A stretch of DNA of 64,000 nt from Squalus acanthias (Eukaryota): NCBI GenBank assembly GCA_030390025.1, contig CM059442.1, forward strand, positions 1,860,001 to 1,924,000, in the 5' to 3' direction. Numbering within the stretch: position 1 is the stretch's first letter; each line of letters begins with the position of its first letter. Below the pieces are notes generated by a model. The model saw nothing but the letters and a program-made list of their open reading frames with translations, searched no databases and was not told the origin of the DNA. A program made the position numbers and the translations under genes. Below are positions 12,322-54,038 of the stretch, piece by piece.

Positions 12322-12357
12322 TGGACACATTCCTGTTCGGTTCAGCAAATTACCAGG
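12322..12357 (-). pseudogene. 36-nt second leader mini-exon of LRC-like Ig receptor gene A, with in-frame TAA
   Basis: Minus strand: ttattctgtcggttctgtaaag|CCTGGTAATTTGCTGAACCGAACAGGAATGTGTCCA|gtgagc. Phase 1-1, reading (A)W*FAEPNRNVS, with the stop at 12350-12352. Confidence 0.65.
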
Positions 12358-12997
12358 CTTTACAGAACCGACAGAATAACATTTACTTCAAGTGAACATC
12401 TTTGTGAAACCTCAAACCTAAGCAGCTGGTATTGTGCATTATCTGGCACAAATGTAACCGTTTCATTTCAATAAGTCTAATCCTTCCCCTTTCTTTATAA
12501 AGGAGGCGTCTCTCGCTGGAAAACGGTTGTAAGGGCGGCGCTTTTCTGTTTTGCCCTTGGGTAGAGCGAACACTTTCCATGTCTGAGCTCAGACGCTGTG
12601 TGTCCTTGAAAAGTCTGATTGCAGATGGTGTAAACATGGATCCTGAAAATGTCCTCAATGGACATCCACTGATCAACAGTTTACAATGGAGCCACACGGT
12701 AACGATTAGCAGCGGGCACTCTCTCTACTTCTCAATCCGCCCTAAATCACCCAAATCTCCCGTAAACTAAAACCAGATGCAATCTCTCAAAGTTGCCAAC
12801 TGAGAATTCTGCAAAAACAATTATCCGCTCCGACAGCTTTCCAGTCTAAAGTGCTTCACACCAATCTAGGAGTTATTTTCATCCACTGAGCTACTGGTGA
12901 TCGGATACTGCCGGGCTCAGTCCCGCTCTGCCGCTTATATTTGCCCACTCTGATATTTCAAGGAACTGGAATGCAGTAAAATTGTTTCACGACTCAC

Positions 12998-13028
12998 CGA
13001 ACATCAGTAACAAGGCGGCTGTGTCCAT
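12998..13028 (-). CDS. First leader exon (signal peptide part 1) of Ig receptor gene A
   Basis: aacATGGACACAGCCGCCTTGTTACTGATGTTCG|gtgagt encodes MDTAALLLMF plus a phase-1 G. Good Kozak context and a consensus donor. Confidence 0.7.
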
Positions 13029-13109
13029 GTTCTAGAGTGAGCTACTTTCAGACATGAGAACTGTAAGGAATGGCGACTGAGTCTCTTGCTCCGCCTCCAG
13101 GATTGTCAT

Positions 13110-13162
13110 ACCTGGAAGTGTTCGGAGAATGAGAGCAGAAACAGAGCCTGGGAGGAAGTGAG
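13110..13162. promoter_or_regulatory. Candidate ETS/PU.1 sites in the promoter of gene A
   Basis: CTGGAAGTG (13112-13120) and GAGGAAGTG (13152-13160) lie 85-130 bp upstream of the leader ATG. Confidence 0.4.
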
Positions 13163-13269
13163 GTTGCCCCACAATTAAAGCAACAGCACCACAATTAAAT
13201 AAGGATTAGAACTTTGCAAGGTTCACCATGGAAGCATTTAAATTGCATACGATCATCTCAGGATGTAGA

Positions 13270-14965
13270 GCCCAGAATGGACAATGAACCCAGAACAACA
13301 CCGTCATTAATTTTTCTTTAGTTAGAACCTCATCTCTCATAATGGTCAGGAACTCAAGTGCTGGCAAGAGACCGTATCCCCCTTCAGCCTCTTAGAGTCA
13401 GCATCAAACACTCAAAAGTCATGCGCACTACAGCAAATTACAAGGGCAAAGTGACTCAACACAAATCTCAGAAGAGCGCCCCCTACTGTGTAGATATTAG
13501 TTTCTGAATTTCGTTAAACGTCCATTTTTGGGCAGCTTTAGTGAGATGCGGTTTGCTCCAGAATCGGTGCTGCATTTAAGCGGCAGCCGATTAAAAAGAA
13601 AACTGGAACATCCAGAAACTGACAGCAGTGTTTTTACACGGAGGTCGGGGAAAATGAATGTACACGGCTATGTTTAATGTGAATCTCATATTGAGCTGGT
13701 TTACTGTTGGTAATAATTGATTGATTTCTACCGTCTTCCTCAAATACTATCTCATCCAACATGGAAATGATGGTGAAAACAAAACTAATGATGTTACGGT
13801 GCAACGTTCTAGCTCTCGTCAGTAGAAGAGAACTGGAATGGCCTCCGATGAAATGCAGCGACACATTTAGAGATGTGTTCGAAACTGAGAATGCTCATTT
13901 GAAACATTTGACTTAAAATGCGGAAGAGAATCGGTGCAGCTCTGTTCCTGAACCGCTTTCCCCTCCACAGCCATGCCAAACCATGTCAGACTGTGACTGG
14001 GAGCTCACAGTTCCCCACAGAAGTGTGTGATTTTGGCGGGTATAATTAAATAAATGCATTAATAACCTTCACTCAAAATCAAAGGCGATTTCATCAAGAA
14101 CCACACATTCCCCCGTTGGTTCAGTAAGTTCACCGAGTGTGATACTTCATTAATAATCACAAAAACTGGGGACTTTGGTAAAAACAGGCTGAGTTTGATA
14201 GTTCTTCTTCCATTTTTGTCAGTATAAGATCTACTAGGACCGCGTCTGACGGGCAAAAGGAACTGTTAATATTCCCTGAAGCAGTGAATCCCTGATACAC
14301 AGTGCGCCAGAATACCTGTCCAACAACAACAGCAACAACTAGCATTTATAGAGCGCAGTAAAATGTCCCAAGGCTCTTCACAGGAGCGATTATCAAACAA
14401 AATTCGACACAGTTTTCGGGAATAAGTTCCGGACCTTAGGTCCTGGGCAACTGGAGACACGGCCGTCAGAGGTGGCGCGCAGAAAATGAGGGACGTTGAA
14501 GAGGAAGGAGGCCACTCGGCCCCTCATATCTCTGAATTGGAATGTTGCAATGTATAACATCATAATCTTTGAATATTAGACTGAATGACAGTTCTAGATT
14601 GGACTATGTACCCTGAAGAACACCGTTAATCATTTGTGTTTAGTTAGAACTTTAGCTCCCATCATGGTCAGGTACTCCAGTGCTGGGAAGTAACCGTTTC
14701 CCGCTCGAAACGAATGCGCAGGTCAGTAAAATACAACAAAGTGACACAACCCAAACGTCAGAAGAGCGCCACCAAACTGTATCGATCCAGCATTTTCTGT
14801 TTTTATTTTGTATCGTCCATTGTTCCTCCATTTCGCTAAACAACCATCCTGTGGTCGATTTGAGTGAGATGCCGTTAGCTCCGGATACGTTGTCGATTTT
14901 ACGTTGCAGTTGATTGAAAAGAAAACTGGAACATGAAATTGACAGCAAATTGTGTTACATGGAAG
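13270..14965. repeat. Diverged direct duplication of a ~370-bp non-coding block (~13270-13645 and ~14600-14965)
   Basis: Shared strings include tttagttagaac, atggtcagg.actc.agtgctgg, tcagaagagcgcc, gtgagatgc and aaaagaaaactggaacat. Confidence 0.85.
13474..13490 (-). promoter_or_regulatory. Candidate CTCF site
   Basis: The minus strand reads CACAGTAGGGGGCGCTC, a close match to the CTCF core consensus. Confidence 0.5.
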
Positions 14966-14999
14966 TCTGGTGTAATCAATATCCAAGAGGCAAGATTTT

Positions 15000-15310
15000 G
15001 ATGATTGCTGTGGTCTCGGAGGGTTGTAGGGCTGGAGGAATTTACATAAATAGGGAGGGGCGGCGTTATGGAGCAAAATGTATATCAGGATGAGAATTGT
15101 GGGGCTGGAGGAGGTTACAGAGATAGGAAGGGGCGGGGCTATGGAGAGATTTGAACAGCAGGATGGGAATTGTGGGGCTGGAGGAGGTTACAGTGATAGG
15201 GAGGGGCGGGCCATATAGGGATTTGAACATGAGAATGAGAATCGTGGGGCTCGAGGAGGTTGCAGAGATAGGGAGGGACGGGACCATGGATTTTTATATC
15301 ACGATGAGAA
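15000..15310 (-). repeat. L2-type LINE fragment locally amplified as ~73-bp tandem repeats
   Basis: Units start at ~15089, 15162 and 15235. The minus-strand translation PPYLCNLLQP matches the L2-like copy at ~21550-21620. Confidence 0.75.
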
Positions 15311-15709
15311 TTGAAATAGTTATTTTTAAAGGTATGGTTTAAAAATAAGTATGGACAGATTAATAGAAAGCATGCTCTTAACAATCGTCTAAAAATATTT
15401 AAATTAAAGTTGTTGTTTATTCTGTGTATTCTTTGGTAGTGAAATGAATTGATATTTGTGTTTGTGTCCTCTGTCTATTTTTAGGTTCCTTAGGTTGTTA
15501 ATACGTGTTGTTATTGTTATTATGTGTAGTAACGACATGAAGGTCTCTTTATGCAATAAATGCCACGACAAATTTTATTGGTAACTGTTGTTAACATCAT
15601 TCATTTTGTGCCATTTAGCTCTTTCATTTATGCTCCTCTGAAAGATTAACTTTTACGATGAAGTCCAGTCATATCATTAAAACGCATCGGACGGGATATT
15701 CCGCTTATA

Positions 15710-16410
15710 GAATCTTGGAAATTTACGGCACATAAGGGGGCCATTCGGCCAATCGTGTTTGTGCCGGCCGAGAAAGCGCCAGCCAGCGTAATCACACTTT
15801 CCAACACATAGTTCTTAGCCCTCTAGGTTACAGCACTTCAAATGCATATCCAAGTACTTTTTAAACGTGATGAGGGTTTCTGCCTCTACCACCATTTCAG
15901 GCAGTGAGTTTCAGATCCCTACCAACCTCTGAGTGAAGCAAGTTCTCCTCAAATCCCCTCTAATCTTTCTACCAATTACTTTAAATCTATGCCCCCTGAT
16001 TATTGAACTCTCTGCTATGGGAAATATGTGCTTCCCATCCACTCTGTCAAGGCTCCTCATTATTTTGTACACCTCAATTAAGTCTCCCCGCAGCCTTATC
16101 TGTTCCAAATCAAAGAACCCAGCCTATCGAAAATAACAAGATAAAATGCTGGAAATGCTCAGCAGGTTAGGCCGCAACTAGGTGAGAGAAACAAAGTTAA
16201 CGTTTCAGGTTGATGACACTAACAAATCTTTCCTCATAGCTAAAATTCTCCAATCCTGATAACATCCCCGTAAATCTCTTCTGTACCCTTTCTCGTGAAA
16301 TCACATCTTTCCTGTAATGTGGTGACCAGAACTGTACGCAGAGCTCTAGCTGTTGTCTAATTGGAGTTTTATGCAGTTCAAGCATGTGGTGACCAGAAGT
16401 GTACGCAGTA
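15710..16410 (-). mobile_element. CR1 3' fragment with a small nested Penelope-type terminal fragment (~16130-16220)
   Basis: RGDLIEVYKIM and CVQFWSPHYRKDV fragments. The insert gctggaaatgctcagcagg...gttaacgtttcaggttgatgac resembles 22660-22745. Confidence 0.8.
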
Positions 16411-16729
16411 CTCTTGCAGTAATTCCGGCGAAGTAACGCCAGCGAAACGGGAGCAGGCTGTCTGGACCGCAATGTCCGGTGGCTTCTTGCTCCCCCTTAA
16501 TCAGCTCGTCGCCCCCATCGCCCCCAGTTTGGGAATCTCTATTCTATTGCATGGAAAGGAACAATTGCACAAAACCGAGTGACGTAATCTGTTTGTTCAA
16601 AGGACTTAAACTAACTTGAGGATAATTGCCTCACTGGAGACTCGCGACAGGTATAACCGAGGAATCCATTGAATGTGACACAGAGATAAAGTCTACAGCT
16701 TGTAGGACTCACATCGCTTCTCATAGAAA

Positions 16730-16799
16730 ATTCACGGACCAGCCACTGGTCCGGTGTATGCCATTTACAATCCCTTCCTCGCAGCTATTGGCACTCCAC
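16730..16799 (+). CDS. Exon 1 of GPR139/142-like GPCR (N-terminus and first half of TM1); ATT at the expected start position
   Basis: Reads (I)HGPATGPVYAIYNPFLAAIGTP plus c|gtaagt (phase 1) and joins in frame to exon 2. An in-frame TAG lies two codons upstream (16724-16726), and there is no ATG. Confidence 0.8.
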
Positions 16800-17192
16800 G
16801 TAAGTTGCTACGGTATTGATTGTGCAAACGGCTTCTCAAAGCAGTTACTTAATTTGTTGTTTTTTATTCAGAGCTCAGTCTCTTCCTTTAAGGATCGGAC
16901 CGACCTTTTGAAATCTTCTGCTGCACTTGAAATTGAGCGATTTCAACTCTGATCCCACCTTGTGATCAGAAATTATTTAAAGCACAGCGATCGCTGTTGT
17001 TGATTCTCGCAGATGTACACCGAAATGTTTCCTTAGACTCTGCACTGTGCACCATTTTAGAGGAATTGGTCACATTTATTGAAACGTTTAACATTTGCCT
17101 TAAATAGCCGACAAAACCTCTAATGAATGTTTAGCTCCACTAATGCCACCGGCATTTAAGTTTAACTGATGTCGGGCGGTGCATTACAGTGT

Positions 17193-17397
17193 CAGCGTGG
17201 CTCAGTGGGCAGCGCTCTCGCTTCTGAGTCAGAAGGTTGTGGGTCCAGCGACCCACTCCAGAGACATAAGCACAAAAATTCGAGGCTGATGCTCCAGTGC
17301 AGTAGCGAGGGAGCGCAACACTGTCGGCCGGTGCCGTCTTTCGGATGAGGCGTTAAACCGAGGCCCCGTCTGCTCTCTCAGGTGGAGGTGAAAGAGG
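17193..17397 (+). mobile_element. tRNA-headed SINE with Deu-type central domain (partial)
   Basis: Box A tggctcagtggg, then ggtgccgtctttcggatgag...taaaccgaggccccgtctgc. Confidence 0.75.
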
Positions 17398-17399
17398 AA

Positions 17400-17900
17400 G
17401 GAGGTCAAGGTGTTGGAGCGGTTACAGAGGAGGTTTAACAGGAAGTTGCACGGGATGAGGGCTTTTAATTATGTGGAGAGTGCTGGGAAACTGGGATTGT
17501 TCTCCGTCGAACAGAGAAGAATAAGAGGTAACCGAAAAGAGGCATTCAAAACGCTGAGGGATTTTGATGCAGCAGGTAGTGATAAATGTAGGACACTGGC
17601 AAAGGGGTCGGTAATAAGATTTCATAGATTTACAGAAATTGCCAAAATAATTAGAGGGGAGATAAGGATTTTTTTTACACAGTGAATGGATAAAATCTGG
17701 AACGCACGACCGAAAGCGTTTTGGAAGCAGATTCCATGGGAAATCTCAAACTGCTTTTGTACATATTCTGGAAGACTAATTTGCAGTGTTATGGAGAGGA
17801 AGCTGGGGTGTGCGACTAACTTGGACAGTTCTTTGAAAGAGCCGGCACAGGCACGACATGCCTAATGACCACCTTCTGTGCTGTAATATTCTGTGATTTT
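17400..17900 (+). mobile_element. Degenerate CR1 3' fragment
   Basis: LERLQRRFNRK...LGLFSVEQRRIRG. Confidence 0.8.
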
Positions 17901-18171
17901 GTGCTATTGTAGTGTATTGTAATGCATTAATTACATTACGGTGTATTTTATGGTGCTAGACTCTTTTATAATTATATACTTGTACTATAATGCTTCATAT
18001 GGTATTGTACTTCTAATACCTCTGTAAATGTATTATGCTGTAACACATGGTGTTAAACTGTGATAGAGTACATTAATACATTACAGTGCATTATTGATAT
18101 TATAATATATTATAATTGAATGAATTGTATTAAGGTGCGCTATGCAGCATTATACTGTATTATATGGAGAG

Positions 18172-18625
18172 GGTCAGTAGTGGCTCAGTTGGTAGTACTC
18201 TCACCTCTGAATCAGAAATTAATGTGTTCAAAGTCCCACCACAGAGACTGAGCACAGAAATCTAGGCGGACATTCCAGTACAGTACTAAGGGAATGAAGT
18301 ACTGAGGGAGCGCTGCAATGTCAGAGGTGCCGTTTTTCGGATGAGATTTTAATCCGAAGACCCGTCTGCTCTCTCAGTTGTGCGTAAAAGATCCCATGTC
18401 ACTATTCCAAAGAGGAGTGGGGAAGCTATTGCTGCTGTCCTGGGCCAAATCTTTATACGTCAATCAACATTATGTGGTCCTAACCACATTGCTGTTTGAG
18501 GGAGCTTGCTGTGCAGAAATTGGCTGGCGAGTTTCCTACGTTAAAAATGCGCTTCATTGGCAGTAAAGAAATTTGGGACGTCTGGAGGCCGAGAAAGGCG
18601 CTTTATCAATGCACGTTTTTTCTTT
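18172..18625 (+). mobile_element. Near-complete tRNA-headed Deu-type SINE
   Basis: Box A (tggctcagttgg) and a box-B-like gttcaaagtcc, the same core as 17193, and an L2-like tail (gaaaggcgctttatcaatgca). Minus-strand partial copies lie at ~29890-30185, ~51975-52085 and ~54200-54310. Confidence 0.75.
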
Positions 18626-18784
18626 CAATATAGAGCATCAATTGTGTTACGGTGCTTTACATGGTATTGGACTGTAGTATCTGTTACCTCACTGTGTTAT
18701 ACTGATTTAGCTGCGTTATAGCGCAGTAGATGGTGTTATGCTGTATTATACTGAATCAATTGTATTTCAGTGCACCAAAAGAAA

Positions 18785-19145
18785 ATAAGAACATTAGAAT
18801 TCGAAGGAGGAGAAGGCCATACGGGCCCCCGAGCCTGCTCCGCCATTCAATAAGGTGAGGGCTGGTCTTCGTCATCAACTCCAGTTTCCGTCCGACCCCA
18901 TACCCCGTGATTCCCTTAGTGCCCAACAATCTATCGACCTCCGCCTTGAATATACTCAACGAATGAACATCCACAGAACTTTGCGGTAGAGGATTGCAAA
19001 CATTCACTACCCTCTGAGCGAAGAGATTCCTTATCATCTAATTCTTATATGGCCGATCCCTTATCCTGAGTCAGTGTCCCCTAGTTCTAGAAACCCCAGC
19101 ACGGGGAAACAGCCTCTCAGCATCTCCCCTCTCAATCCCCCTCAG
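18785..19145 (-). mobile_element. CR1 3' end fragment
   Basis: RNLFAQRVVNVCNPLPQ translation and a taagaacat tail. Confidence 0.8.
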
Positions 19146-19688
19146 ATACGGTGGTATACTCTATTATACTGAGTTAGATTTATTACAGTGCACTATTTGG
19201 TGTGGTGATGCTGCGTCATCCATTTACCAAGACCACACAATGAAACAAATGGTTTAATTTCGGCTCCTAAGTGAGATTGACTGATTTTGAGCCGATGCAG
19301 TCCGTATAGTGAAGATGCTCTCACAATGCTATTGGGTAGGGATTTCCAGGATTTGAACCCAGCGATAATATTCTGTGCAAGTCAGGATGGTACTTGACTT
19401 GGAGGTGAACTCCCGCACCTGCTGCCCTTGGTCTTCCTGCTGGTGGAAGTCGCAGCTTTGAGAGGAGCTGCCGAAGAGGTCTTGGCGGTTTGCTGCCGTG
19501 CATCCGGTAGATAGTACACACTGCAGCCACCGTACTCCGCTGGTGGAGGGAGTGGATGCTCAGGTTTAACGTGGAAGAGCTGGATCAAATATCAAAGTTG
19601 CAATTTTCATAGAACGTGCGGTGAAAATCGAGCCTGTGTTGTGAGTCTCAGCCCTCATTTCCTTGTCTTTTCCCGCTCTTGTTAACAG

Positions 19689-20605: not shown

Positions 20606-21049
20606 AAGCTTCCGGCGTTAATTATGGGTCACGTTTCGCCCTGTGTTGTTCCTATATTTGGTTTTTGAACTAGGTTTCTTCGACTTTCCCCTGTCCTAAT
20701 TAGAATCGCAAGCACGCCCTCTGAGACTCTTCCCCAACAAGGTAAACCCACACTTGAAATAAACCACTTGCATTTAAAGCACGCTGTTCATGTCCTTGTG
20801 TAAGCGGTAGATTCCGACACTAAATAGACGTTTCTACCTTTACTGTATTTGACACACACAGTAACTGTATTCAGTAGACAGACAGAGAAATAAACGATGT
20901 TATTGCGATTTCCCCGCGTTGAAATGTAATCTTTTTGGATTCCTACAATCCCTGCAACTTGTTAGGTAAAGTTTACAGTCATTATATTATGATTTCATAC
21001 CCAGCTCTACCTCTCCTCCACATCTTTCGAACCGTCTACCAACTCTCTG

Positions 21050-35829: not shown

Positions 35830-37720
35830 TTAGTGTTTGATTGTGTTTGAATGTGTGTGATTGTGTGTGTGTTTGTGTGTGTGTCTATGTGTGTGTCTGT
35901 GTGTTGTAATATGAACGTGTGTTTGAGTGTTTGTCTGTGTGTTTTAACATGAGTGTGTGTCTGTGTGTTTTAATATGAGGGTGTGTTTGAGTGTGTTTAT
36001 GTGTGCTTTAATATGTGTGTGTGTTTGAGTATGTGTGTGTTTTAACGTGAGTGAGTGTTTGAGTGTGTGTATGTGTGCTTTAATATGTGTGTGTGTTTGA
36101 GTATGTGTGTGTTTTAACGTGAGTGAGTGTTTGAGTGTGTTTATGTGTGCTTTAATATGTGTGTGTGTTTGAGTATGTGTGTGTTTTAACGTGAGTGAGT
36201 GTTTGAGTGTGTGTATGTGTGCTTTAATATGAGTGTGTGTTTGCGTGTGTGTGTGTGTGTGTTTTAATATGAGTGGGTGTTTGAGTGTGTGTGTGTTTTA
36301 ATATGAGTGTGTGTTTGACTGTGTGTGTGTGTGTTTTAATATGAGTGGGTGTTTGAGTGTGTGTGTGTGTTTTAACATGAGTGTGTGTTTGACTGTGTGT
36401 GTGTGCTTTAATATGAGTGTGTGTTTGAGTGTGTGTGTGTGTTTTAATATGAGTGTGTGTGTGTGTGTTTTAATATGAGTGGGTGTTTGAGTGTGTGTGT
36501 GTGCTTTAATATGAGTGTGTGTTTGCGTGTGTGTGTGTGTTTTAATATGAGTGTGTGTTTGAGTGTGTGTGTGAGTTTTAATATGAGTGGGTGTTTGAGT
36601 GTGTGTGTGTTTTAATATGAGTGTGTGTTTGACTGTGTGTGTGTGTGTTTTAATATGAGTGGGTGTTTGAGTGTGTGTGTGTGTTTTAACATGAGTGTGT
36701 GTTTGACTGTGTGTGTGTGTTTTAATATGAGTGGGTGTTTGAGTGTGTGTGTGTTTTAATATGAGTGTGTGTTTGACTGTGTGTGTGTGTGTTTTAATAT
36801 GAGTGGGTGTTTGAGTGTGTGTGTGTGTTTTAACATGAGTGTGTGTTTGACTGTGTGTGTGTGTTTTAATATGAGTGGGTGTTTGAGTGTGTGTGTGTGT
36901 TTTAATATGAGTGTGTGTTTGACTGTGTGTGTGTGCTTTAATATGAGTGTGTGTTTGAGTGTGTGTGTGAGTTTTAATATGAGTGTGTGTTTGAGTGTGT
37001 GTGTGAGTTTTAATATGAGTGGGTGTTTGAGTGTGTGTGTGTGTTTTAATATGAGTGGGTGTTTGAGTGTGTGTGTGTGTTTTAATATGAGTGTGTGTTT
37101 GAGTGTGTGTGTGAGTTTTAATATGAGTGTGTGTTTGAGTGTGTGTGTGAGTTTTAATATGAGTGTGTGTTTGAGTGTGTGTGTGTGTTTTAATATGAGT
37201 GTGTGTTTGAGTGTGTGTGTGAGTTTTAATATGAGTGTGTGTTTGAGTGTGTGTGTGAGTTTTAATATGAGTGTGTGTTTGAGTGTGTGTGTGTGTTTTA
37301 ATATGAGTGGGTGTTTGAGTGTGTGTGTGTTTTAATATGAGTGGGTGTTTGAGTGTGTGTGTGTGTTTTAACATGAGTGTGTATTTGACTGTGTGTGTGT
37401 GCTTTAATATGAGTTGTGTTTGCGTGTGTGTGTGTGTGTTTTAATATGAGTGGGTGTTTGAGTGTGTGTGTGTTTTAATATGAGTGTGTGTTTGACTGTG
37501 TGTGTGTGTTTTAATATGAGTGGGTGTTTGACTGTCTGTGTGTGCTTTAATATGAGTGTGTGTTTGCGTGTGCGTGTGCGTGTTTTAATATGAGTGGGTG
37601 TTTGAGTGTGTGTGTGTTTTAATATGAATGTGTGTTTGAGTGTGTGTCTGTGTGTTTTAACATGAGGGTGTGTGTTAGTGTGTGTATGTGTGCTTTAATA
37701 TGAGTGTGTGTTTGAGTGTG
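35830..37720. repeat. TG-rich minisatellite, ~28-32 bp unit (ttttaatatgagtgtgtgtttgagtgtgtg), ~60 copies
   Basis: Directly visible. The core is homogeneous and the edges degenerate. Confidence 0.98.
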
Positions 37721-38034
37721 AGTGTATGTTTTTGGTCGAGTGAATGTCTGTGTCTTTGACTGAACGTATGAGCATATATATGTGTTTGTGTGTGTGCATG
37801 TTTGTGATTATGTATACAAGTCTGTGTATATATGTATATGTATTTGTGAGTGTGTGTATGTATATACGTCTAATTGTGTGTTGGAGTGTGTGCGTGAGTG
37901 TGAGTGAGGAGCTTCTTTCTAATATGCAAATTAAGTCATGTATACAGGGTACAATATTTCCCGAACGTTTTGTTCTGAGCATTATCTTGGTCCAGTTTGG
38001 TTGAAATTGACAAAACAACACTTAATGTTCTTAC

Positions 38035-38985: not shown

Positions 38986-39075
38986 CTTTCTTCCAGAAGC
39001 ACAAACCCAACAGAGCAAGGATGAGAATCAGACCCACAGCAGAGCCAACACCAGCCTCCATCGCAAAGGGTTTAT
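38986..39075 (-). CDS. Transmembrane exon of Ig receptor gene B
   Basis: tttccctttatctcatttag|...|gtgggt, 90 nt, phase 1-1, reading (D)KPFAMEAGVGSAVGLILILALLGLCFWKK. An uncharged hydrophobic helix is followed by basic stop-transfer residues. Confidence 0.88.
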
Positions 39076-40002: not shown

Positions 40003-40196
40003 TGTCGTAAGAATGAGCCTTACGCGTGGTGAACTTAAAGTAAGCTTTAATCAACTAAAAAGGTGCTACATACAAAAGAGGTCTTACTCTATGCCTCTCC
40101 AGGATGCAACTGATCAGCCCAGTATTTATCCTGGACTAATCACAGGAAGTGATGTAATAAAGTTCAAGTCACAGGAAGCTGTATTGTGTTACCACA
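40003..40196 (-). repeat. 3' LTR
   Basis: Identical to 44060-44253 except for one substitution I could find (gtcttActct vs gtcttGctct). On the minus strand it is preceded by the PPT ggggggggggagaa-like tract at 40197-40208. Confidence 0.97.
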
Positions 40197-40831
40197 TTCT
40201 CCCCCCCCAAAAGATTAGGAGGCCGGGATGAAGTTCGAGTCACAGGAAGCTGTATTGTGATACCACATTCTCCCTCCATTTCGTAGCCGCTGGACGAGGG
40301 AGAGCCGCACCCGTTTGGGTTTTCGTAGCGGTAGAGGGCCCCTAGCCCGTTTACCCGCCGCGGGCCGTGGACCAGAGTCCGAGTGATCCAGCCCGCTCTG
40401 TGAGGGGTCAGGACGATCCTGACTGTGTACTGGTGCCCGAACGGGTGTCGGGCAGGGCTGTGGCAGATCCGTTTCCGAGCGTATGGTACGGGGTGGATCG
40501 TGGCTGCGCGTGCGAGCCCCGACGGGCTCATAGTCAGTCTGCCCCAGGTCGGCACGCTGGGGTGAGGTACCAGCCGGCGTCAGATCCAGATCGTGATGAG
40601 AGGCACCTGGCGAGCCCAGAGATGTGCCTGGTACAATATCATCCCCTGGTGTCCCTCTATGTTTCGGCGGGCAGGGAGCCAGATCCCGCAATGACACGGT
40701 AGATTCCCGACCGTCAGGATACCGAATATAGGCGTAGGTAGGGTTGACGTCAGTGAGCTCAACCTCATCTACCAGGGGGTCATTCTTAGACGCCCGAACA
40801 TATCTTCGGAGTAGCACTGGTCCCGGTGCAG

Positions 40832-43800
40832 TCAGCCACGACGGGAGAGATATCCCATAGGATGAGCGACGTGAAATCGGAAGAACCGTTCATGAGGCGT
40901 CGTATTTGTGGCGGTCGAAAGGAGGGACCGTGTGGAGTGTAATGCGTCTGGAAGTACTGCTTCCCATTGCTGGTTGGGTAGGCACCGAGATCTCAAATCC
41001 AGACGTACCGCATTCCAGATGATAGCGTTAAAACGCTCGACTTGCCCATTCCCGACCGGATGATAAGGCGTCGTTCTGCTGGCAGCAATACCCCGTTCCG
41101 AGAGATAGGCCTTGAGTCCTCCTGACATAAAAGAAGGGCCCCGATCTGAATGAGCATAGGATGCCATGCCACAGAAAGCAAATACCTGCTCAAGGCAGCT
41201 GATAACCGTGGTCGTCAGCATATTGGGGCAGGGAAAGGCAAACGGAAAACGGGAATACTCATCGACCATGGTCAATAGATAAGTGTTGCGAGTTGAAGAG
41301 GGCAACGGCCCCTTAAAATCGATGCTAAGCCGTTGCATTGGCTGGGTCGCATGTATGAGTATACCACCCGAGGGGCGGAAAAACTGAGGTTTCAATTCCG
41401 CACAGACTCTGCAGTCCGAGCACATCTTCTTTACATTCCCGGTAGAGAATGGGAGATTTCGGGACCGCACGAAGTGTAGCATGCGAGTAACGCCCGGATG
41501 ACACAACCCATCATGGATGTCTACGAGCGTAGAGGGTGCCATGGCAGAGCAGAATGCTCGTGTGAGGGTATCCAGAGCCACATTCTCCTTGCCAGGTCGA
41601 TAGTGGATGGTGTAACCAAAAGAGGCCAATTCCAGCCGCCAAAGCTGGATTTTATTATTTTTAATTTTGGTCCGTTTTCGATTATCGAGCATGAAGGCGA
41701 CCGATCGCTGGTCCGTGATTAAGGTAAAGTGCTGGCGAGCTAGGAGATGAGTCCACTTCCGTACTGCCTCTATGATGGCTGTAGCTTCTTTCTCGACTGG
41801 AGGATAATGTAGCTCAGCCCCTTGAAAAGTCCTGGACAAAAATGCCACCGGACGACCTTCCTGATTCAGAGTGGCCGAGATCGCCACCTCCGAGGCATCA
41901 CACTCAACAACAAAAGGAAGACTCTCATCGATGGAGTGAAGAGCCGCTTTCTCCAACTGTTTTTTCAGGAGGTTAAAGGCTGCAACAGCCGCTGTGTCTA
42001 GTGGGAATGTGCTGGCCTTCAGTAGAGGTTGGATTCGGTCCGAGAAGTTAGGAATCCATTTAGCATAGTATGCAAACAGGCCGAGGGCCCGGCGCAAGGA
42101 GGCCAGATTCTTAGGTGGCGGGAGTTCTTGGAGTGGGCGAAGCCTTTCAGGGTCAGGTTTAATGATGCCATTGCCCACACAATAGCCAAGGATGTTGATG
42201 GTTGGTTGTGACTCAATGGATTTAGCCGCATTTAATGTCAAAATACGGTGCTGGAGTGCATCCCAAAATCGTTGGAGATTGGCGTCATGTTCCCGCTGAT
42301 TGCGACCTGCGACAGTAATATTGTCCAGATAAGGAAATGTATCCGTTAAGTCTTCCTGTTTGACCAGGTCATCCATTGCTCGCTGGAAGACAGCCACTCC
42401 ATTAGTGACCCCAAAGGGGAGGCGACGAAATTGATACAGCCGTCCATTGGCTTCAAAGGCCGTATACTGCTTGTCTGAGACCTTCAAGGGTACCTGATGA
42501 TAGGCACTTTTCAGATCATATGTTGAGAACACCGTGTACTCAGTCAGTTTATTAACCATATCATCGATGCGCGGCAATGGGTATGCGTCCAAGTCCGTAT
42601 ATTGATTGATGGTCTGTGAATAGTCAATGCACAGCCGTTTCTTGTGAGGTTGTATATTAGAAATAGTGATTTCAGGTTTGGATCCGCCGAACTCAGTGGT
42701 GAGCTTCTTATGCTGCTTTTGAAAATCTAGCCCTAAGATAAGATCACTACATAAGTCCTTGAGCACCGAAAGCCGGGTGGAGGGATACCTGTGACCATTA
42801 AGTGTTATTTCAACCATACAAAAGCCAGAAATTCTGGTATTAAGTGATGACTGAGCCATCGCAATTGCCTGGTCCGATGGGAAAACATGTAGCTTTAACT
42901 CTGCAACAATCTGTTCCCTAATGAAACTATCAGTGCTAACTGAGTCAATTAAGGCATCTAAAGTATGTCCATTAATTGATGCTTTTGTAGCTGCATGGAA
43001 ATAGTTCTGAGGACAAGCAGCTGTAATTGGTGTCGTTGCACAAAGAGTGGCTGAAACTCTAGGTGTGTTTCTTCGAGAGAAAACCCGAGAGGAAGCACGA
43101 TAGATTTTAGCCGGAACATCTTGATAGGCCCTTACCGGGGCAGTTCGGTAGGACTTAGCTTGATAAGCCCTCGTAGAGGCTCTTGATAGGCAAACCTTTG
43201 CAAAATTACCCTTTTTGTTGCAATGACTGCAAAACGCATTGCGAGCAGGGCAGAATTTCCGAAGGTGAAACTCATCACCACAAAAGAAGCATTTCTTAGA
43301 TTGCCAAGAGGCTGCTACAGTGGGGTCATCATCCTCTTCATCAGTGAAGTCATCAGATTGATCGTCAGGGATAAAGTCCTCCCTAATAGAGTTCACCTGT
43401 GGCCTCTTAAATTGCCTGACTGTAGTTAAGGCAGCAGACCGAGGTCTGGGCACTGTATAAAGGACTGCATTTCTTTTTGCCAGATCTAGAGAGCAAGCCA
43501 TGTCATAAGCTCTCTGAAGCTCAAGTGTCTTACTTTCCAGTAGACGCTGGCGTATAAATGGGGAGGCAAGCCCGCAGATGAAAGCATCACGGATCATTTC
43601 TTCACGGTACAGCTCAGCTGAGGCCGCCTGAAAGTTACAGTCCATACTAAGTCTGCGAAGCTCTTGGAGGAATTTATCAATGGATTCCTCCGGCCCTTGT
43701 TGGGCTGTAGCTAGTAGATGTCTGGCATAGACCTCATTCGGTGTCTTAGTATATAGTCTTTTAAGCGTCCGAATTGCCTCCTCGTAACTGCCCCATTCCT

Positions 43801-43981
43801 CGACATACTGAAATACATTCGGGGTGACACAGTTGATGAGTATCCGCAATTTTGAGTCATCATCAGCCTTGCAATATTCAAGAAAATTGTCAAACGTGCG
43901 ATACCAGTGTTTCCACACCTTACCGGCTGCTGGGGTGTTTGGGTCCAAGTCAAGACGCGATGGTTTAAGGATGTTTTCCAT
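40832..43981 (-). CDS. Gypsy gag-pol polyprotein (1049 aa, defective); integrase C-terminus continues after a frameshift in ORF 40215-40817
   Basis: Cys knuckles (CFFCG...CPARNAFCSHCNKKGN), protease LIDSVS, RT (YDLKSAYHQV, LPFGV, YLDN), RNase H (ECDAS) and integrase (HPG..., SIDF, HSDRG, NGQVER). Confidence 0.95.
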   Translation of the reverse strand: MENILKPSRLDLDPNTPAAGKVWKHWYRTFDNFLEYCKADDDSKLRILINCVTPNVFQYVEEWGSYEEAIRTLKRLYTKTPNEVYARHLLATAQQGPEESIDKFLQELRRLSMDCNFQAASAELYREEMIRDAFICGLASPFIRQRLLESKTLELQRAYDMACSLDLAKRNAVLYTVPRPRSAALTTVRQFKRPQVNSIREDFIPDDQSDDFTDEEDDDPTVAASWQSKKCFFCGDEFHLRKFCPARNAFCSHCNKKGNFAKVCLSRASTRAYQAKSYRTAPVRAYQDVPAKIYRASSRVFSRRNTPRVSATLCATTPITAACPQNYFHAATKASINGHTLDALIDSVSTDSFIREQIVAELKLHVFPSDQAIAMAQSSLNTRISGFCMVEITLNGHRYPSTRLSVLKDLCSDLILGLDFQKQHKKLTTEFGGSKPEITISNIQPHKKRLCIDYSQTINQYTDLDAYPLPRIDDMVNKLTEYTVFSTYDLKSAYHQVPLKVSDKQYTAFEANGRLYQFRRLPFGVTNGVAVFQRAMDDLVKQEDLTDTFPYLDNITVAGRNQREHDANLQRFWDALQHRILTLNAAKSIESQPTINILGYCVGNGIIKPDPERLRPLQELPPPKNLASLRRALGLFAYYAKWIPNFSDRIQPLLKASTFPLDTAAVAAFNLLKKQLEKAALHSIDESLPFVVECDASEVAISATLNQEGRPVAFLSRTFQGAELHYPPVEKEATAIIEAVRKWTHLLARQHFTLITDQRSVAFMLDNRKRTKIKNNKIQLWRLELASFGYTIHYRPGKENVALDTLTRAFCSAMAPSTLVDIHDGLCHPGVTRMLHFVRSRNLPFSTGNVKKMCSDCRVCAELKPQFFRPSGGILIHATQPMQRLSIDFKGPLPSSTRNTYLLTMVDEYSRFPFAFPCPNMLTTTVISCLEQVFAFCGMASYAHSDRGPSFMSGGLKAYLSERGIAASRTTPYHPVGNGQVERFNAIIWNAVRLDLRSRCLPNQQWEAVLPDALHSTRSLLSTATNTTPHERFFRFHVAHPMGYLSRRG

Positions 43982-44059
43982 GATGGGTGATTCCCTGGAT
44001 CCTTAGTTCCGAGTTCGTCCAAAAAGTTTGAGTGCGAAGTTTTTCAAAGTTGATTAAAT

Positions 44060-44253
44060 TGTCGTAAGAATGAGCCTTACGCGTGGTGAACTTAAAGTAA
44101 GCTTTAATCAACTAAAAAGGTGCTACATACAAAAGAGGTCTTGCTCTATGCCTCTCCAGGATGCAACTGATCAGCCCAGTATTTATCCTGGACTAATCAC
44201 AGGAAGTGATGTAATAAAGTTCAAGTCACAGGAAGCTGTATTGTGTTACCACA
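44060..44253 (-). repeat. 5' LTR
   Basis: The minus strand contains TATA-like GATAAATA and the poly(A) signal ATTAAA. Confidence 0.97.
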
Positions 44254-44864
44254 CTGCTCATGCGAGGAGAGAAAGAGATGACCTAATGTTTCAGGTGCGG
44301 GCCTTGGTCAGAACATCCTGCTCTCTCCACAGACGCCGACTGAACTGTTGTATATTTCAAACAGCTGATAGTTTTTTTTGCTTTTTTGCTTACTATGTTA
44401 AAATGAACTTTTGTTAAAGTCGCTAACGTGGATATATTTTTTTCTCAGCTTCCCTAGGGGGCAACCTTGGACAATTAGAGAATCGTTGAGGAACTACAAG
44501 AGAAAGCGAGTGAATCAAACTTTTAATCGGAGTTGGAGAAGTAAAACCATTCAATGATTAGCGCTTTAATTCGGCCATCAGTCACGCGGTAAGTAGCGAA
44601 CATTTAAGGGAATAAGTTTCAAAGGGTATTCGGGCACTGGGGCAAAAGCGGGCATTGTCGCATCGCACGCCTGTACAGTTCGATAGGACGGGGTTTAAGG
44701 CGGGCGGCCTATGAGACACCATCCAAGAAGAATTTTAACACCTGGATGTCATTTCCACGGCAGTTTTAATCGTTAAACAGAAAATCTGATGCGGACTAGC
44801 AATAACTCAAAAACTCCTTGTACTGGGGTACGATGAATACAGAGACTGTGTGAATCTCACTCAC

Positions 44865-45160
44865 CTCCTACAGTTATATGTACCGGGTCACTCAGAGCTG
44901 ATGTCAGCCGCCTTCCCCTCACATCCGCTTCATACAGACAGGAGTGATTTCCTCATTCGGCGTGATCAATACTCCTGATGGTGAAGGTGACAGAATAACA
45001 CCCTGCAGCAGCAGGCTGGACATCCGAGTAATTCGTTTCCCCTTGACGGTATAAGTAAAATGTGATGCCAGGAAGCTCCGGGGGCTTGTACAGTTAAAGA
45101 TGACTTCTCCACTCTTCACAACAACATTGGAATCCATTAATATATTTGGTTTGGGTAGAT
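44865..45160 (-). pseudogene. Disabled membrane-proximal Ig-domain exon of gene B (1-bp deletion plus stop)
   Basis: 296 nt between intact AG and GTGAGT. Reads DLPKPNILMDSNVVVKSGEVIFNCTSPRSF, then after a frameshift at ~45070 ITFYLYRQGETNY...VTFTIRSIDHAE*GNHSCLYEADVRGRRLTSALSDPVHITVG. TGA at 44953-44955. Confidence 0.9.
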
Positions 45161-45259
45161 CTGTATTTCGAAAGGAACAAGTAGTGACCATCGATTCAAA
45201 ATGCAATACAGACTTATTCTTTTGAACCAAAAAATGAATAACCTGAACTTGTGTAAACA

Positions 45260-46990: not shown

Positions 46991-47032
46991 TCGGATTCTT
47001 CTACCTTAATATATTTGGTATTGTTACCGCAT
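46990..47032 (-). pseudogene. Truncated remnant of a further Ig exon (acceptor plus ~14 codons)
   Basis: Same acceptor (atttattttaccacag) and upstream intron as the exons at 51809 and 54038. Reads DAVTIPNILR*KNPT and then runs into CR1 sequence. Confidence 0.7.
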
Positions 47033-49266: not shown

Positions 49267-51109
49267 TTAGGAACACTCCTCGCCACGATGGACGTCTCGG
49301 CACTCTACACCAGTATCCCCCACAATGACGGCATCGCTGCGACAGCCTCAGTACTCAACACCAACAACAGCCAATCTCCAGATGCCATCCTACAACTCAT
49401 CTGCTTCATCCTTAACCACAATGTCTTCACCTTCGACAACCAGTTTTTTACCCAAACACACGGAACAGCTATGGGGACCAAATTCGCACCCCAATACCCC
49501 CACATCTTCATGCACAAGTTCGAACAAAACGTCTTCGCTGCACAGGCCCTCCAACTAACGCTATACACCAGATACATCGACGACATTTTCTTCCTATGGA
49601 CCAAAGGCGAAGAATCACTGAAAAGACTACCCGATAACATCAACAAGTTCCATCCCACCATCAAACTCACCATAGACCACTCCTCAGAATCAGTTTAATT
49701 CTTTGACACACGAATCTCCATCAAAGACGGATACCTCAGCATTTCACTCTACCGCAAGCCCACGGACAACCTCACGATGCTTCACTTTTCCAGCTTCCAC
49801 CCTAACCACGTTAAAGAAGCCATCCCCTATGGACAAGCACTGCGAATACACAGGATCTGCTCAGACGTGGAGGAACGCGATGGACACCTGCAAACGCTGA
49901 AAGACGCCCTCGTAAGAACAGGATATGACGCTCGACTTGTGGATCGACAGTTCCGACGGGCCACAGCGAGAAATCGCATAGACCTCCTCAGAAGAAAAAC
50001 AGGGGACACAACCAACAGAGTACCCTACGACGTCCTGTACTTCCCCGGAGCGGAGAAACTACGCCATGTTCTTCGGAGCCTTCAACATGTTATTGATGAC
50101 GCCAAACACCTCGCTAAGGCCATCCCCACGCCTCCACTCCCCGCCTTCAAACAGCCCCCTAACCTCAAACAGACTATCGTTCGCAGCAAATTACCCAGCT
50201 TTCAGGAGTACAGCGTCCACGACACCACACAACCCTGCGACAGCAACCTCTGCAAGACATGCCAGAGCATCAACACAGATACCATCATCACAGGTGAGGA
50301 CACCACCCACCAGGTACATGGTACATACTCATGTGACTCGGTCAAAGTTGTCTACCTCATACGTTGCAGGAAAGGATGCCCTGGAGCATGGTACATCAGC
50401 GAGACCATGCAGTCACTGCGACAATGTATGAACGGACACCGCACAACAATGACCAGGCAGGAGTGTTGCCTCCCAGTCGGGGAACAGTTCAGCAATCAAG
50501 GACATTCAGCCTCCGATCTTCGGGTAAGCGTTCTCCAAGGCGGCCTTCGAGACACACGACAAAACATAATCGTCGAGCAGAAATTGATAGCCAAGCTCCG
50601 CACCCATGAGGACAGCTTCAACCGGGATCTTGGCTACATGTCACGCTACAAGTAACCCCACCTGACGTCGAGTCATCTAGAGTCGATTCGTCATTGGCTT
50701 GTTCTCTCTACACAGATGCGGCCGGACCTGCTGTGATTTCCAGCAAAAAAAGTTTTTGTTTTCCATACAGACCCCAGCATCTGCCAGATTTGAGCCCTTG
50801 TGAGCCCACCTCATTGTCTTTGATGTAATGCTTTCCTGACTGACCTGTTTGGACACCATCCACACCTTTGATTGCCGTGATTATCTCTCTGCCGAGGTGT
50901 GATAAAGGGCAGTTAGAAAGATTAACTGTAATCATCTGGCAGTGTTCTCTGACTATATATGCTGTGCCTATATGCATCTCTTTACTTCAACTGACGAAGG
51001 AGCAGCGCTCCGAAAGCTTGTGATTTTAAATAAAGCTGTTGGACTATAACCTGATGTTGTGCGACTTTTCACATTTGCACACCCCAGTCCCAAACCGGCA
51101 TCTCCACAT
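49267..51109 (+). mobile_element. Penelope-like element (RT plus GIY-YIG endonuclease), 5'-truncated, one internal stop
   Basis: MDVSALYTSIPH, GTAMGTKFAP, RYIDDIF and VVYLIRC...WYISET. Terminal repeat with a hammerhead. TSD CATTTAGAAAT (49256-49266 and 51110-51120). Confidence 0.95.
50987..51023 (+). ncRNA. Minimal hammerhead ribozyme in the Penelope terminal repeat
   Basis: TCAA-CTGACGA-A-GGAGC-agc-GCTCC-GAAA-GCTT-GTGA, with one stem I mismatch. Confidence 0.75.
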
Positions 51110-51515
51110 CATTTAGAAATGAGATGAGGAGAAATTTCTCCACTGAGAGGATGGTGAATCTTTGGCACTCAGTATCCCATGGCGCTGTGAAGGCTCAGTC
51201 CTTGAGTATATTCAAGACAGAGGTCGATAGATTTTTTGAATATTAAGGGAATCAAGGATATGTGCATAGTGCAGGAAAGAGGAGATCCTCTCGGTGATTG
51301 CGAATGTTCTTACTGAATGGCGGAGCAGGCTTGAAGGGCCAAATGGCCTAATCCTGCTCCTGTTTCTTATATTCTTATGTTCTTAAAACCAATCCTGTTG
51401 TTTTCCTCTCTCCTAATATTGAACCATTAATTCAGTTGCAGTGGTTAAAGCCTGATTTTGTAAACATACGAAGAGTGTTGAAAAAAATGAGAAATCTCTG
51501 CTCCCTTTCACTCAC

Positions 51516-51809
51516 CTGCTTCAGTAACCGACACAGACTCGCTGCGTTGAGATTCTAACCTCCTCCCCATGACGGAGGTTCTATATCGGCACTGGTACCG
51601 CCCTCCTTGGCCTTTAGTGGTAACCGGGAATTTTCCAATTTTGTCCTCTGTGACAATTTGATCGGTTTGCAGATATTGATTATCTTTGTAAAAGTAGAAG
51701 GTTTTAACGCGATAATCTCCGGTCACGGTGCAGGTCATGGTGACTGTCTGTCCTACTACATACACCCCAGTCGGTTGATCAAGAGATATCACGGGCGGTG
51801 TTAGCGGAC
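51516..51809 (-). CDS. Ig-like (C2/LRC-type) domain exon of gene B, intact
   Basis: 294 nt, phase 1-1, AG/GTGAGT. GPLTPPVISLDQPTGVYVVGQTVTMTCTV...FYFYKD...GGRYQCRY...SQRSESVSVTEA. Confidence 0.93.
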
Positions 51810-52419
51810 CTGTGGTAAAATAAATAGAAATAACATTTAGAAATGGATCTGCGGATTTTCATGTACAGTGCAAATTTGGGAACTCAATGATGATTGTGCG
51901 GTGTTAAAGCGCAGTTTCACATCGGATATAAAGATTCCACAAAAGGGGACTTCGGGATTTGATTACAAAGAAACAAAGAAAGACGTCCATTCCTCTAGCA
52001 CCTTTCATGACCCCTGGACGTCTCAATGCGCTTTACCACCAATTTACTAATTTTGAAGTGTAGTCGCTGTTGTAAAGTACGAAATCAAATTGCAGAGCCA
52101 AAGAACCTAAATCTGCTCGAGTTCTCTATACAAAGTCCGGTTTAAGGCCAGAGATTTTACTCTGGGATACGAGCGCAACAAGGAAATGGCTGCTTGGGAA
52201 ATCCTCAGTGCTGCTAATTTATCCCAGGTGAAGATGCGATCAAAAAGAGTCAAAGTCTCCATTATACCCGCATCGCGATTGGTGACCTGTACCAGTGCAA
52301 GTATGAAAACTCCGCCAAGGGAAGGCAGTTAGAAACCAATCTGAGCGGGGCTGTGACCGTCAGACATTTCAAATAATTGAGCCGTTATTGTGAGCCATCA
52401 ATTGTTGTTATCATTACTG

Positions 52420-53140
52420 TTGTGGTTGTCGCTGGCATGGTTGGCAACAACTGTCCGTCCCCAGTTTCCTCTTCAGAAGCTGATGACTGGCCTTCGATTT
52501 GATCCACAGCGAGTCCGGTGCGGTCAAAGTTCACAACAGTGCAGTGAGTTCCAAGATTTTGACCGACCGACGATGAAGCAACAGCGATATATTTCCAAGT
52601 CAGGATGGTGTGTTACTTGGAGGTAAACGGGGAGGTGCTGCTGTTCCCATGCGCCTGCTGCGCTTTCCCTTCTAGATGGTTGAGTTCGCGGGTTTGGGAG
52701 GTGCTGCCCAATAAGACTTGGTGAGTTGCTGAAGTGCATTTTGTAGATGGTATACAATGCAGCCACTGTGCTCCGGTGGTGGACGGCCTGAATGTTTAAT
52801 GTGGTGCATGACCTGCCAATCAAGCGGGCTGCTTTGTCCTGGATAGGGTCCAGCTTGCTGAGTTGGACCTGCTCTCACCCAGGCATGTGGAGAGTATTCC
52901 ATCATACACCTGACTTGTGCAAGTAGATGTTGGAAAGTCTTTGCAGAGTCAGGAGGTGAGTCATTCGCCTCCGCATTCCTCGCCAGCGACCTCCTCTAGT
53001 AGCCACAGTGATTATGTGAAGTGGAATTTCTAGTTGATGGTGTTAGAGTAGAATTGAGAGGTGATGTTGTTCCCATGCGCCTGCTGCCCTTGTCCTTCTG
53101 GGTGGTGAAGGTCCCGTGTAAGTGAAGTGCTGCCGAAATG
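52420..53140 (-). mobile_element. Degenerate non-LTR retrotransposon 3' fragment (CR1/L2 superfamily); related copies at ~19280-19590, ~47400-47690 and ~54650-55100
   Basis: MEYSPHAW, LDTIQDKAARLIG and HHRSTVAALYTIYKMH motifs are shared between copies. Confidence 0.7.
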
Positions 53141-53747
53141 CAATGCAGAGAGAGATATGGAACACCACAACGTAATTAGATTAAAATATCGCGCATAACA
53201 GGGTCCTTTTGAAAGTATCGGAACGCAGATTCTGTTCTCTGACAGAGAAACCTGTAATGTGTCAAGGCCAGTCAGTCTGGAGAGATTCTTGAGGTGACGC
53301 TACACACAGTGGAGTTAATATCCCTGGCGCCGTGCTGTCATTGTGGCACTAAACTTTGATAGTTGAAACATATATTGGAGCATTTTTTCTTAGGTGGTTC
53401 CAAAAAACAGGTGGTCACGATTCGATTTGAAACACATAATTAAATGGAAAAGAAAATCAGTCGGGGCATAAAACGGGCTGACGAATATCTATTTCCCCCT
53501 GCATATTTTACCCACTTATCCAGTAACGACGTTTGCTGGTAATACATTCACAACAGGAGAATGTAGGGGCCAGTGTTACAGGGATCCTGTCTCGAGTTGA
53601 GCAATAAGATCAAAACCCATTCGGTTATATTCCTCTCTCCTAATATTAAACCATTCATTTTGTTAAAGTGATTAAAGCCTGATTTTATAAAAAATACCAT
53701 GAGCGATTTAAGAAACAGATGAAAATTCTCTGCTCCCTGTCACTCAC

Positions 53748-54038
53748 CTGCTACAGTGACCGTCACAGAATCGCTGTGATGAGATACTAACCACCACCCA
53801 TTAACGGAGGTTCTATACGCGCACTGGTACCGCCCTCCTAGGTCTGTACTGGTAACCCGGAATGTTCCAATGTTGTTCTTTGGGACAATTTGATCGGTTT
53901 TCAGATATTGATTATCTTTGTAAAAGTAGAACTTTTTATCGCGATAATCTCCGGTCACAGTGCAGGAAATTGTGACCGTCTCTCTTACTACATACACCCC
54001 AGTCGGTTGATTAAGAAAAATCACTTGCGTTAGCGGAT
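53748..54038 (-). CDS. Ig-like (C2/LRC-type) domain exon of gene B, intact, paralogue of 51516-51809
   Basis: 291 nt, phase 1-1. DPLTQVIFLNQPTGVYVVRETVTISCTV...FYFYKD...GGRYQCAY...SHHSDSVTVTVA. Confidence 0.93.

Follow-up and report, generated by a model that had tools for sequence, protein, structure and literature searches.

A large family of C2-type immunoglobulin receptors in Squalus acanthias, likely a cartilaginous-fish sister lineage of the leukocyte receptor complex

A stretch of 64,000 nt from the shark Squalus acanthias (assembly GCA_030390025.1, contig CM059442.1, here C18, positions 1,860,001-1,924,000; henceforth the window) carries exons of an immunoglobulin (Ig) receptor gene, gene B, that belongs to a large family of type I membrane receptors with C2-type Ig domains. 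The family is likely a sister lineage, in cartilaginous fish, of the leukocyte receptor complex (LRC), and its members are best read as relatives, not orthologues, of KIR, LILR or CHIR. The gene plan consists of a leader split into exons of 31 and 33 nt, several phase-1 Ig exons and then one of two tail types, either an uncharged transmembrane segment with four tail exons and two immunoreceptor tyrosine-based inhibitory motif (ITIM)-type motifs, or an arginine-bearing transmembrane segment with a short tail. The searches covered the 3.7 Gb genome, and all exons discussed lie on the minus strand. A preliminary description of the window had proposed two tandem KIR/LILR/CHIR-like genes, 'gene A' and gene B, within a multigene LRC-like cluster of a cartilaginous fish. 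The cluster is upheld by fold, tree, paired transmembrane segments and tails, linkage to LENG8 and homologues in other sharks and rays, but orthology to KIR, LILR or CHIR is not, and instead of two tandem genes we find a single gene, which is broken, together with a first-exon block that arose by duplication.

The paralogue count called for by that description gave 151 genome matches to the second Ig exon of gene B (Ig2) and 36 to the second leader exon. Among the Ig2 matches the best 150 of 380 candidates were scored and counted by hand; 45 of these 150 are on C18 (33 at 0.49–2.13 Mb and 12 at 7.6–10.6 Mb), and the remaining ones on C1, C29, C66 and unplaced contigs. The family is large, with many tandem, inverted and broken copies. 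All 16 protein homologues of Ig2 come from sharks or rays (45–60% identity), and eight of the 16 end in ITIM-type tails; gene B and its sister copies likewise have two ITIM-type motifs. Transmembrane exons with an arginine were found in five regions (C18:1.767, 2.132 and 0.977 Mb, and twice on C3839), in genes with a short tail, and these segments have an N-terminal tyrosine and often a C-terminal glutamate. Both types occur within 370 kb, the arginine forms at C18:1.767 and 2.132 Mb with the ITIM-bearing gene B in between. As for a possible partner, an FcR-gamma-like transmembrane exon (C1222:25571-25654, L186) scored 43.9 bits to FcR-gamma versus 38.2 to CD3-zeta; it sits on an unplaced contig and a separate zeta-like exon on C5, neither of them on C18.

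The closest structural relatives of the domains are LRC receptors. Models predicted from shallow alignments were compared with 48,161 chains, and for Ig2 (predicted local distance difference test, pLDDT, 82) LRC receptors took ranks 1–4, among them chicken CHIR-AB1 (Z 12.9, root-mean-square deviation, rmsd, 1.7 over 89 residues), PirB (12.7) and LILRB4 (11.8), with FcR types at Z 10.1–10.7. The signal was stronger for the membrane-proximal domain of paralogue L102 (pLDDT 89), for which LRC receptors filled ranks 1–10 (Z 14.8–12.6), again led by CHIR-AB1 (Z 14.8, rmsd 1.4 over 91 residues); PECAM-1 reached Z 12.5, and FCRLA, FcgRI, FceRI and FCRL5 Z 11.1–11.6. Foldseek alone was less clear, placing PD-1 first by E-value while giving LRC chains the top TM-scores (0.70–0.76). 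At the sequence level, the profile of the membrane-proximal and related type scored 38.5 bits to PirB D1 and 32.6 and 30.9 bits to LILRB domains (31–33), over the full domain. The profile of the Ig1/Ig2 type (A1) scored 28.5 bits to a single domain of CHIR-AB1, the best among the PDB chains scorable as one domain.

Domain trees point the same way, with less force. In a quick tree of 105 rows, the careful version of which did not complete, tetrapod LRC and ray-finned FCRL/LITR-like domains formed separate branches with the shark domains outside both. In a tree of 39 rows, run under LG+G4 without a mixture model, with siglec- and hemicentin-like outgroups and with the HIDE1-like, coelacanth and other shark rows left out, shark and tetrapod LRC domains joined with support of 96/94. 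The FCRL/LITR rows were a separate branch in both best trees (92–98), and the membrane-proximal type leaned to the LRC in both. Four reference proteins of the 39-row tree had no name and were assigned to their groups by resemblance. The tetrapod LRC rows (IGSF1, LILRB3-like, marsupial, turtle and lizard) made up a branch of their own without any shark row (98 and 96/94), and therefore gene-level orthology to KIR/LILR is not indicated.

The framework genes of the LRC were sought as landmarks, as had been suggested, and the outcome was mixed: LENG8 and a likely TTYH1 are on C18, reached across assembly gaps, but CNOT3 lies elsewhere and the search for RPS9 came back empty. An exon at C18:2.955 Mb matches human LENG8 with 108.8 bits. 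The genome holds three Tweety genes and, since those at C18:53 Mb and on C24 are TTYH3 and TTYH2, the third, at C18:3.005 Mb, is by elimination likely TTYH1. This gene and LENG8 are 0.83–0.88 Mb from the nearest Ig exon and about 1 Mb from the cluster of the window, and Ig exon clusters of C18 flank them on both sides; human TTYH1 and LENG8 lie between LILR clusters (PMC8562567; here and below, papers given by PMC number are cited from the parts of their text available to us). No Ig exon was found in the 200 kb around LENG8, none of the six genome matches for CDC42EP is on C18, and RPS9, searched through PF00163, gave no match, a search that was uninformative.

Several observations weigh against the sister-lineage reading. 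In the fold search with Ig2, CD22 equalled LILRB4 at Z 11.8. With profile A1 the highest whole-chain score, 95 bits added up over 9 domains, went to FCRL5, with LILRB1 next, and the best single domains of the two, at 18.4 bits (FCRL5) and 17.0 bits (LILRB1), leave the Ig1/Ig2 type ambiguous by sequence. The link between shark and LRC domains fell to 79 in the 105-row tree, which gave the Ig1/Ig2 type no clear placement, and an approximately unbiased (AU) test did not reject a grouping of the shark domains with FCRL/LITR (p 0.12; 0.21 for the Ig1/Ig2 type). Neither tree contained tetrapod FCRL rows or KIR/CHIR sequences, and the references had been chosen with our own profile. The position at −3 of the arginine in the transmembrane exons is Ile, Ser or Ala, not the Asn of NxxR, and the second leader exon is 33 nt long and not the 36 nt expected of KIR, LILR or CHIR. 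A whole gene was not demonstrated for any of the six close copies, that is the window copy and its five sisters. The linkage on C18 rests on the stretches 1.75–2.21 and 2.90–3.10 Mb, with 2.21–2.90 Mb unread; the first is gap-free and the second has six N gaps, two of them just before the LENG8 exon. The Tweety exon at 3.005 Mb, a single exon, scores lowest to TTYH1 and higher to TTYH3 and TTYH2. Because of the gaps, the unread interval, the presence of TTYH3 on the same scaffold at 53 Mb and the location of CNOT3 on C27/C698, a scaffolding misjoin behind the linkage of C18 with LENG8 is possible.

A stronger proposal, that sharks possess a true orthologous LRC with dozens of paired receptors of ITIM and FcR-gamma type flanking LENG8/TTYH1, including natural killer (NK) receptors that would sense 'missing-self' major histocompatibility complex (MHC) class I or receptors for IgM Fc, is a tentative one that we are more inclined to doubt than to accept. 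Descent from a common ancestor of LRC and FcR/FCRL, or a third lineage of HIDE1-like or turtle and frog multi-Ig type, which would leave paired receptors no closer to KIR/LILR, appears improbable. It would suit an Ig2 above the Pfam cut-off for Ig_C19orf38 (HIDE1; 24.5 vs 23.2 bits), the turtle and frog proteins P0052, P0058, P0051 and P0069 that score 43–57 bits to profile A1 where tetrapod LRC proteins score 10–30, the deep forks left open in the 105-row tree when these proteins are included, and a leader exon length that fits neither family. Yet these turtle and frog proteins could in their turn be relatives of the LRC, the lean of the membrane-proximal type in the trees agrees with its first ten fold ranks, and LENG8 and the likely TTYH1 stand between two Ig clusters.

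More improbable still is a shark branch of FcR/FCRL/LITR, that is regulators of B cells or phagocytes that would probably bind antibody Fc. Eight of the 16 homologues bear an 'Fc receptor-like' name (e.g. the automatic 'Fc receptor-like protein 5'), FCRL5 is the top whole-chain PDB match for both Ig2 and profile A1 and shares the long tandem Ig arrays, the AU test leaves the grouping standing, and an arginine in the transmembrane segment is also used by Xenopus FCRL-like receptors (PMC6557307). The FCRL5 score is, however, a sum over nine weak domains of 2–18 bits each, FcR-type folds fall some 2–3 Z units below the best LRC chains, the second exon of FcR-like genes has 21 nt and not 33 (PMC2413239), and LENG8 shares the scaffold with the receptors.

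Gene B in the window is a pseudogene. Two of its phase-1 Ig exons are open, as had been described: Ig exon 1 (53748..54038, 291 nt, phase 1/1, Pfam Ig_2 36 bits) and Ig exon 2 (51516..51809, 294 nt, phase 1/1, Pfam Ig_2 38 bits). The third full Ig exon, the membrane-proximal one (44865..45160, 296 nt), is not, having a frameshift, from a 1-nt loss in a short G run, and a TGA. Between Ig exon 2 and the membrane-proximal exon, at 47008..47032, another Ig exon probably once began; the remnant, severed by a repeat insertion and recognised by the common acceptor context, is present in all five sister copies too. The motifs reported earlier are there, with FYFYK or FYLYR in place of the C-strand Trp, GxYxCxY in Ig1 and Ig2 and a terminal SxxS[DE]xVxV. 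As a mark of LRC style they do not discriminate, because in alignments human FCRL5 domains also lack the C-strand Trp and show the terminal SxxSE motif.

The transmembrane exon (38986..39075, 90 nt), without a charged residue and hence of the inhibitory type, and the tiny tail exons are real and on the same strand, and the gene does occupy 35–54 kb as proposed, except that the tail runs on to 32243. Tail exon C1 (38035..38062, 28 nt) is followed by C2 (35228..35271, 44 nt), whose 3′ end falls within the codon of the first ITIM tyrosine, by C3 (33363..33403, 41 nt), which supplies the rest of the predicted first ITIM, and by the last coding exon C4 (32243..32308) with a second ITIM-type motif and the stop codon. 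The four lengths preserve the frame and predict the two motifs ITYAIL, across C2/C3, and IIYAAV. The donor of C2 is AT in the window copy and GT in all five sisters (on C3354, C2672 and C2671, in blocks 92–98% identical), and the membrane-proximal exon is 297 nt and open in all five; the three lesions, frameshift, stop and dead donor, are therefore specific to the window copy and make it a pseudogene. The sisters have defects of their own: in four of the five a TAA interrupts Ig2, while the remaining one has an open frame from its second exon onward, no first exon being found within 54 kb upstream.

That the family is made up of segmental duplicates in decay, none of them functional in the species, its signal being mostly assembly redundancy and relics, is very improbable: besides these lesions in the window copy and its sisters it could draw on stops in 23 of the 150 listed Ig matches and on C3354 and C2672, which look like two versions of one locus, but 27 of 30 second leader exons retain length, splice sites and frame, mean dN is 0.30 versus dS 0.47 over 153 pairs of open exons (a ratio of 0.64, with 65 of the 153 pairs above 1, to be taken as descriptive and not as a test of selection), two exons of an open relative are joined on one contig and other sharks and rays have full-length gene models. 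This contig, from run X2, a single study that may be of another species and whose RNA status is a guess, spans last-Ig-like and Ig2-like exons at 91–94% identity with 52 letters between, a spacing that fits the unaligned end of exon 2 and therefore an intron-less relative. No RNA record matched window positions 51400-54200.

Various repeats were seen within gene B. A Gypsy-type long terminal repeat retrotransposon at 40100-44300 (−), with an open gag-pol frame of 1056 aa (44002-40835, −), occupies the intron ahead of the transmembrane exon, and its insertion is likely recent since three sister copies have some 4.3 kb less sequence there. A TG-rich minisatellite of 36/72 bp fills 35862-37732, between C1 and C2, and an open frame of 318 aa at 49699-50652 (+) is presumably related to Penelope-like elements. 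Introns that precede Ig exons contain inverted pieces of the 3′ end of an Ig exon, at 52290-52463 (+) and 54496-54582 (+), and such pieces also precede Ig exons in paralogues (C18:1797373, 2122645 and 9307813).

The leader had been described as a 31-nt exon followed by a 36-nt mini-exon, and only the first of these held. The 31-nt exon ascribed to 'gene A' (12998..13028) contains the ATG, 10 codons plus 1 nt and a GTGAG donor; the 1-kb block around it has 41 genome matches (the best 40 of 503 candidates were scored), and 19 of 21 aligned copies retain the length and the GT donor. The proposed mini-exon (12322..12357) has AG and GTGAG ends and, after the phase-1 join, an in-frame TAA. It was rejected: across the 21 copies the AG is present in nine and a stop in 16, leaving three intact. 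Conservation is level across the block without a peak at the segment, and its peptide is hydrophilic. On the minus strand of the window we counted 43 pyrimidine-led AG-36-GT segments, one of them with a GTRAG donor, which is about the level of chance because other lengths give 0–5. A genome pattern search returned 32 matches against 25 in the control. No 36-nt exon was found in 264 kb searched with leader peptides of other sharks, the best acceptor-bearing match of that search (C18:1925153) being a long interspersed nuclear element with 40 matches at 98–100%. The segment is thus most likely intron sequence and not a conserved exon, although, as it is intact next to the first exon of gene B itself (L054) and in two close copies, occasional cryptic use may occur.

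Scanning the paralogues revealed the conserved second leader exon, which has 33 nt. All 36 candidates were scored as genome matches; in the 30 copies examined, at the genomic level, the length is 33 nt in 29 and 32 nt in one, so that none of these copies has 36 nt, and 27 retain AG, GT, 33 nt and an open frame together. The second exon of gene B is at C18:1929098-1929066 (window 69,098, which is 5 kb past the end of the window); the first exon, at C18:1,956,315, is likewise outside. The signal peptide is split 31 + 33 nt, with a predicted junction, and the register of leader peptides in other sharks likewise appears to imply a 33-nt exon. LRC genes typically have a second leader exon of 36 nt, a figure that the literature searched did not give. 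LRC-gene leaders are spread over two exons (PMC3601082), and FcR-like genes obey a 30/21-bp rule with a second exon of 21 nt (PMC2413239). With 33 nt the shark exon matches neither 36 nor 21, and the argument for the LRC drawn from a 36-nt exon fails. Upstream of the gene B leader we observed a long low-complexity satellite (C18:1,994,626-2,014,000 and beyond, L049-L050).

'Gene A' is part of a duplicated block of 12 kb (6823..18968) about 90% identical to the leader region of gene B (C18:1950100-1962188; by self-BLAST 8457 nt at 90.0% and 3893 nt at 90.7%). Ig exons had been expected downstream of its leader, and they do begin at C18:1,800,276, but another first exon intervenes at 1,837,741, ahead of the 33-nt exons at 1,815,320 and 1,809,031, and no 33-nt exon was found between the two first exons. 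Because a first exon precedes any 33-nt or Ig exon, that of the window is an orphan, or an alternative start for the gene with Ig exons from 1,800,276. In sister contigs a 33-nt exon lies some 19 kb downstream of the same first-exon block. Many near-identical first-exon blocks were also observed at C29:1.2-5.3 Mb and elsewhere (L060-L068), with no nearby Ig exon among the matches listed; those of C29 are possibly orphan duplicated leaders.

Some neighbouring features deserve to be recorded. Upstream of an arginine-bearing transmembrane exon, C18:1.778-1.789 Mb (L033-L034) contains five Ig exons, which belong to two more divergent subtypes and have relatives among horn shark models under the names 'IGSF1-like' and 'DM43-like'. 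Five large proteins (P0018, a shark model named 'DMBT1-like', P0019, P0022, P0023 and P0026) seemingly join SRCR-type repeats to similar Ig domains. An array of tandem tRNA genes, repeating about every 1.8 kb, adjoins the receptor cluster at C18:2.14-2.21 Mb (L220, L223, L226), with tRNA-Asn (−) and tRNA-Ser or -Thr (+), 33 genes in the 30 kb scanned.

By analogy with LRC biology, intact members would be displayed on leukocytes as paired receptors. Ligand binding would lead to phosphorylation of the ITIMs and recruitment of SHP-1/SHP-2, damping activation, and the arginine forms would pair with FcR-gamma to activate (PMC6557307). Birth-and-death duplication would leave relics such as the window copy. 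For the ligand, a polymorphic self molecule (e.g. MHC class I) may be a first guess, and antibody Fc, as for CHIR-AB1 and FCAR, perhaps a second.

According to its available text, a 2014 survey found in sharks neither C2-only LRC homologues nor FcR-gamma, and dated both to bony fish (PMC4016189); a 2019 study held it uncertain whether any fish family is the LRC counterpart (PMC6557307). Another study assigns the LRC region to a microchromosome in the ancestor of jawed vertebrates, and the text available names no shark receptors (PMC8302630). Our literature search found no description of the shark family; Wang, Belosevic and Stafford 2021 (Immunogenetics 73:93) may cover cartilaginous fish. The parts available of PMC3964593, PMC6795676, PMC4701786, PMC10247546 and PMC8302630 have no shark LRC genes, and the supplement of PMC3964593 may bear on the question. 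The genes themselves are already known as automatic models under mixed names. If the sister-lineage reading is true, a paired family of LRC fold by LENG8 and the likely TTYH1, together with an FcR-gamma-like gene, would place the origin of the LRC in the jawed-vertebrate ancestor; should sharks keep a true orthologous LRC, the complex would date back as far as jawed vertebrates and adaptive immunity themselves. The family offers specific genes as candidate NK and Fc receptors of sharks, and it suggests that 'FCRL5' is the wrong name for many of the shark models annotated so. The window holds only a pseudogene, and its value is in the family to which it leads.

Among known systems, the shark and ray automatic models P0001-P0016 belong to the same family, with 45–60% identity to Ig2 and the same transmembrane segments and tails under inconsistent best-hit names ('FCRL5', 'IGSF1-like', 'LILRA6', 'uncharacterized'). 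FCRL5, FcR and teleost LITR resemble it in their long C2-Ig arrays, lack of the C-strand Trp, split leader and ITIM tails, FCRL5 also in the highest whole-chain PDB score, but they have lower fold scores, a separate branch (92–98) and, in FcR-like genes, the 21-nt second exon (PMC2413239). With mammalian LILR, PIR, KIR, LAIR1, OSCAR, GPVI, FCAR, NKp46 and IGSF1 the likeness extends to fold, profile scores, ITIM tails and, across assembly gaps, a LENG8 and likely TTYH1 near the cluster, and the arginine transmembrane segments share with those of the mammalian LRC (PMC6557307) the N-terminal Tyr and in several cases the C-terminal Glu; the shark domains differ in standing outside the tetrapod LRC clade (96–98), in the 33-nt second exon and in the absence of an Asn three residues before the Arg. 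Chicken CHIR differ from the shark family in having one or two Ig domains, compared with 3–10 in the shark models, and only 22–25% identity; CHIR-AB1 binds IgY. In their duplication by blocks, their many pseudogenes (in chicken 41 of the 103 loci, PMC1458963), their activating and inhibitory forms and their two-exon leader (PMC3601082), CHIR nonetheless resemble the shark receptors, and CHIR-AB1 (PDB 2vsd) is the best fold match for both shark domain types (Z 12.9 and 14.8).

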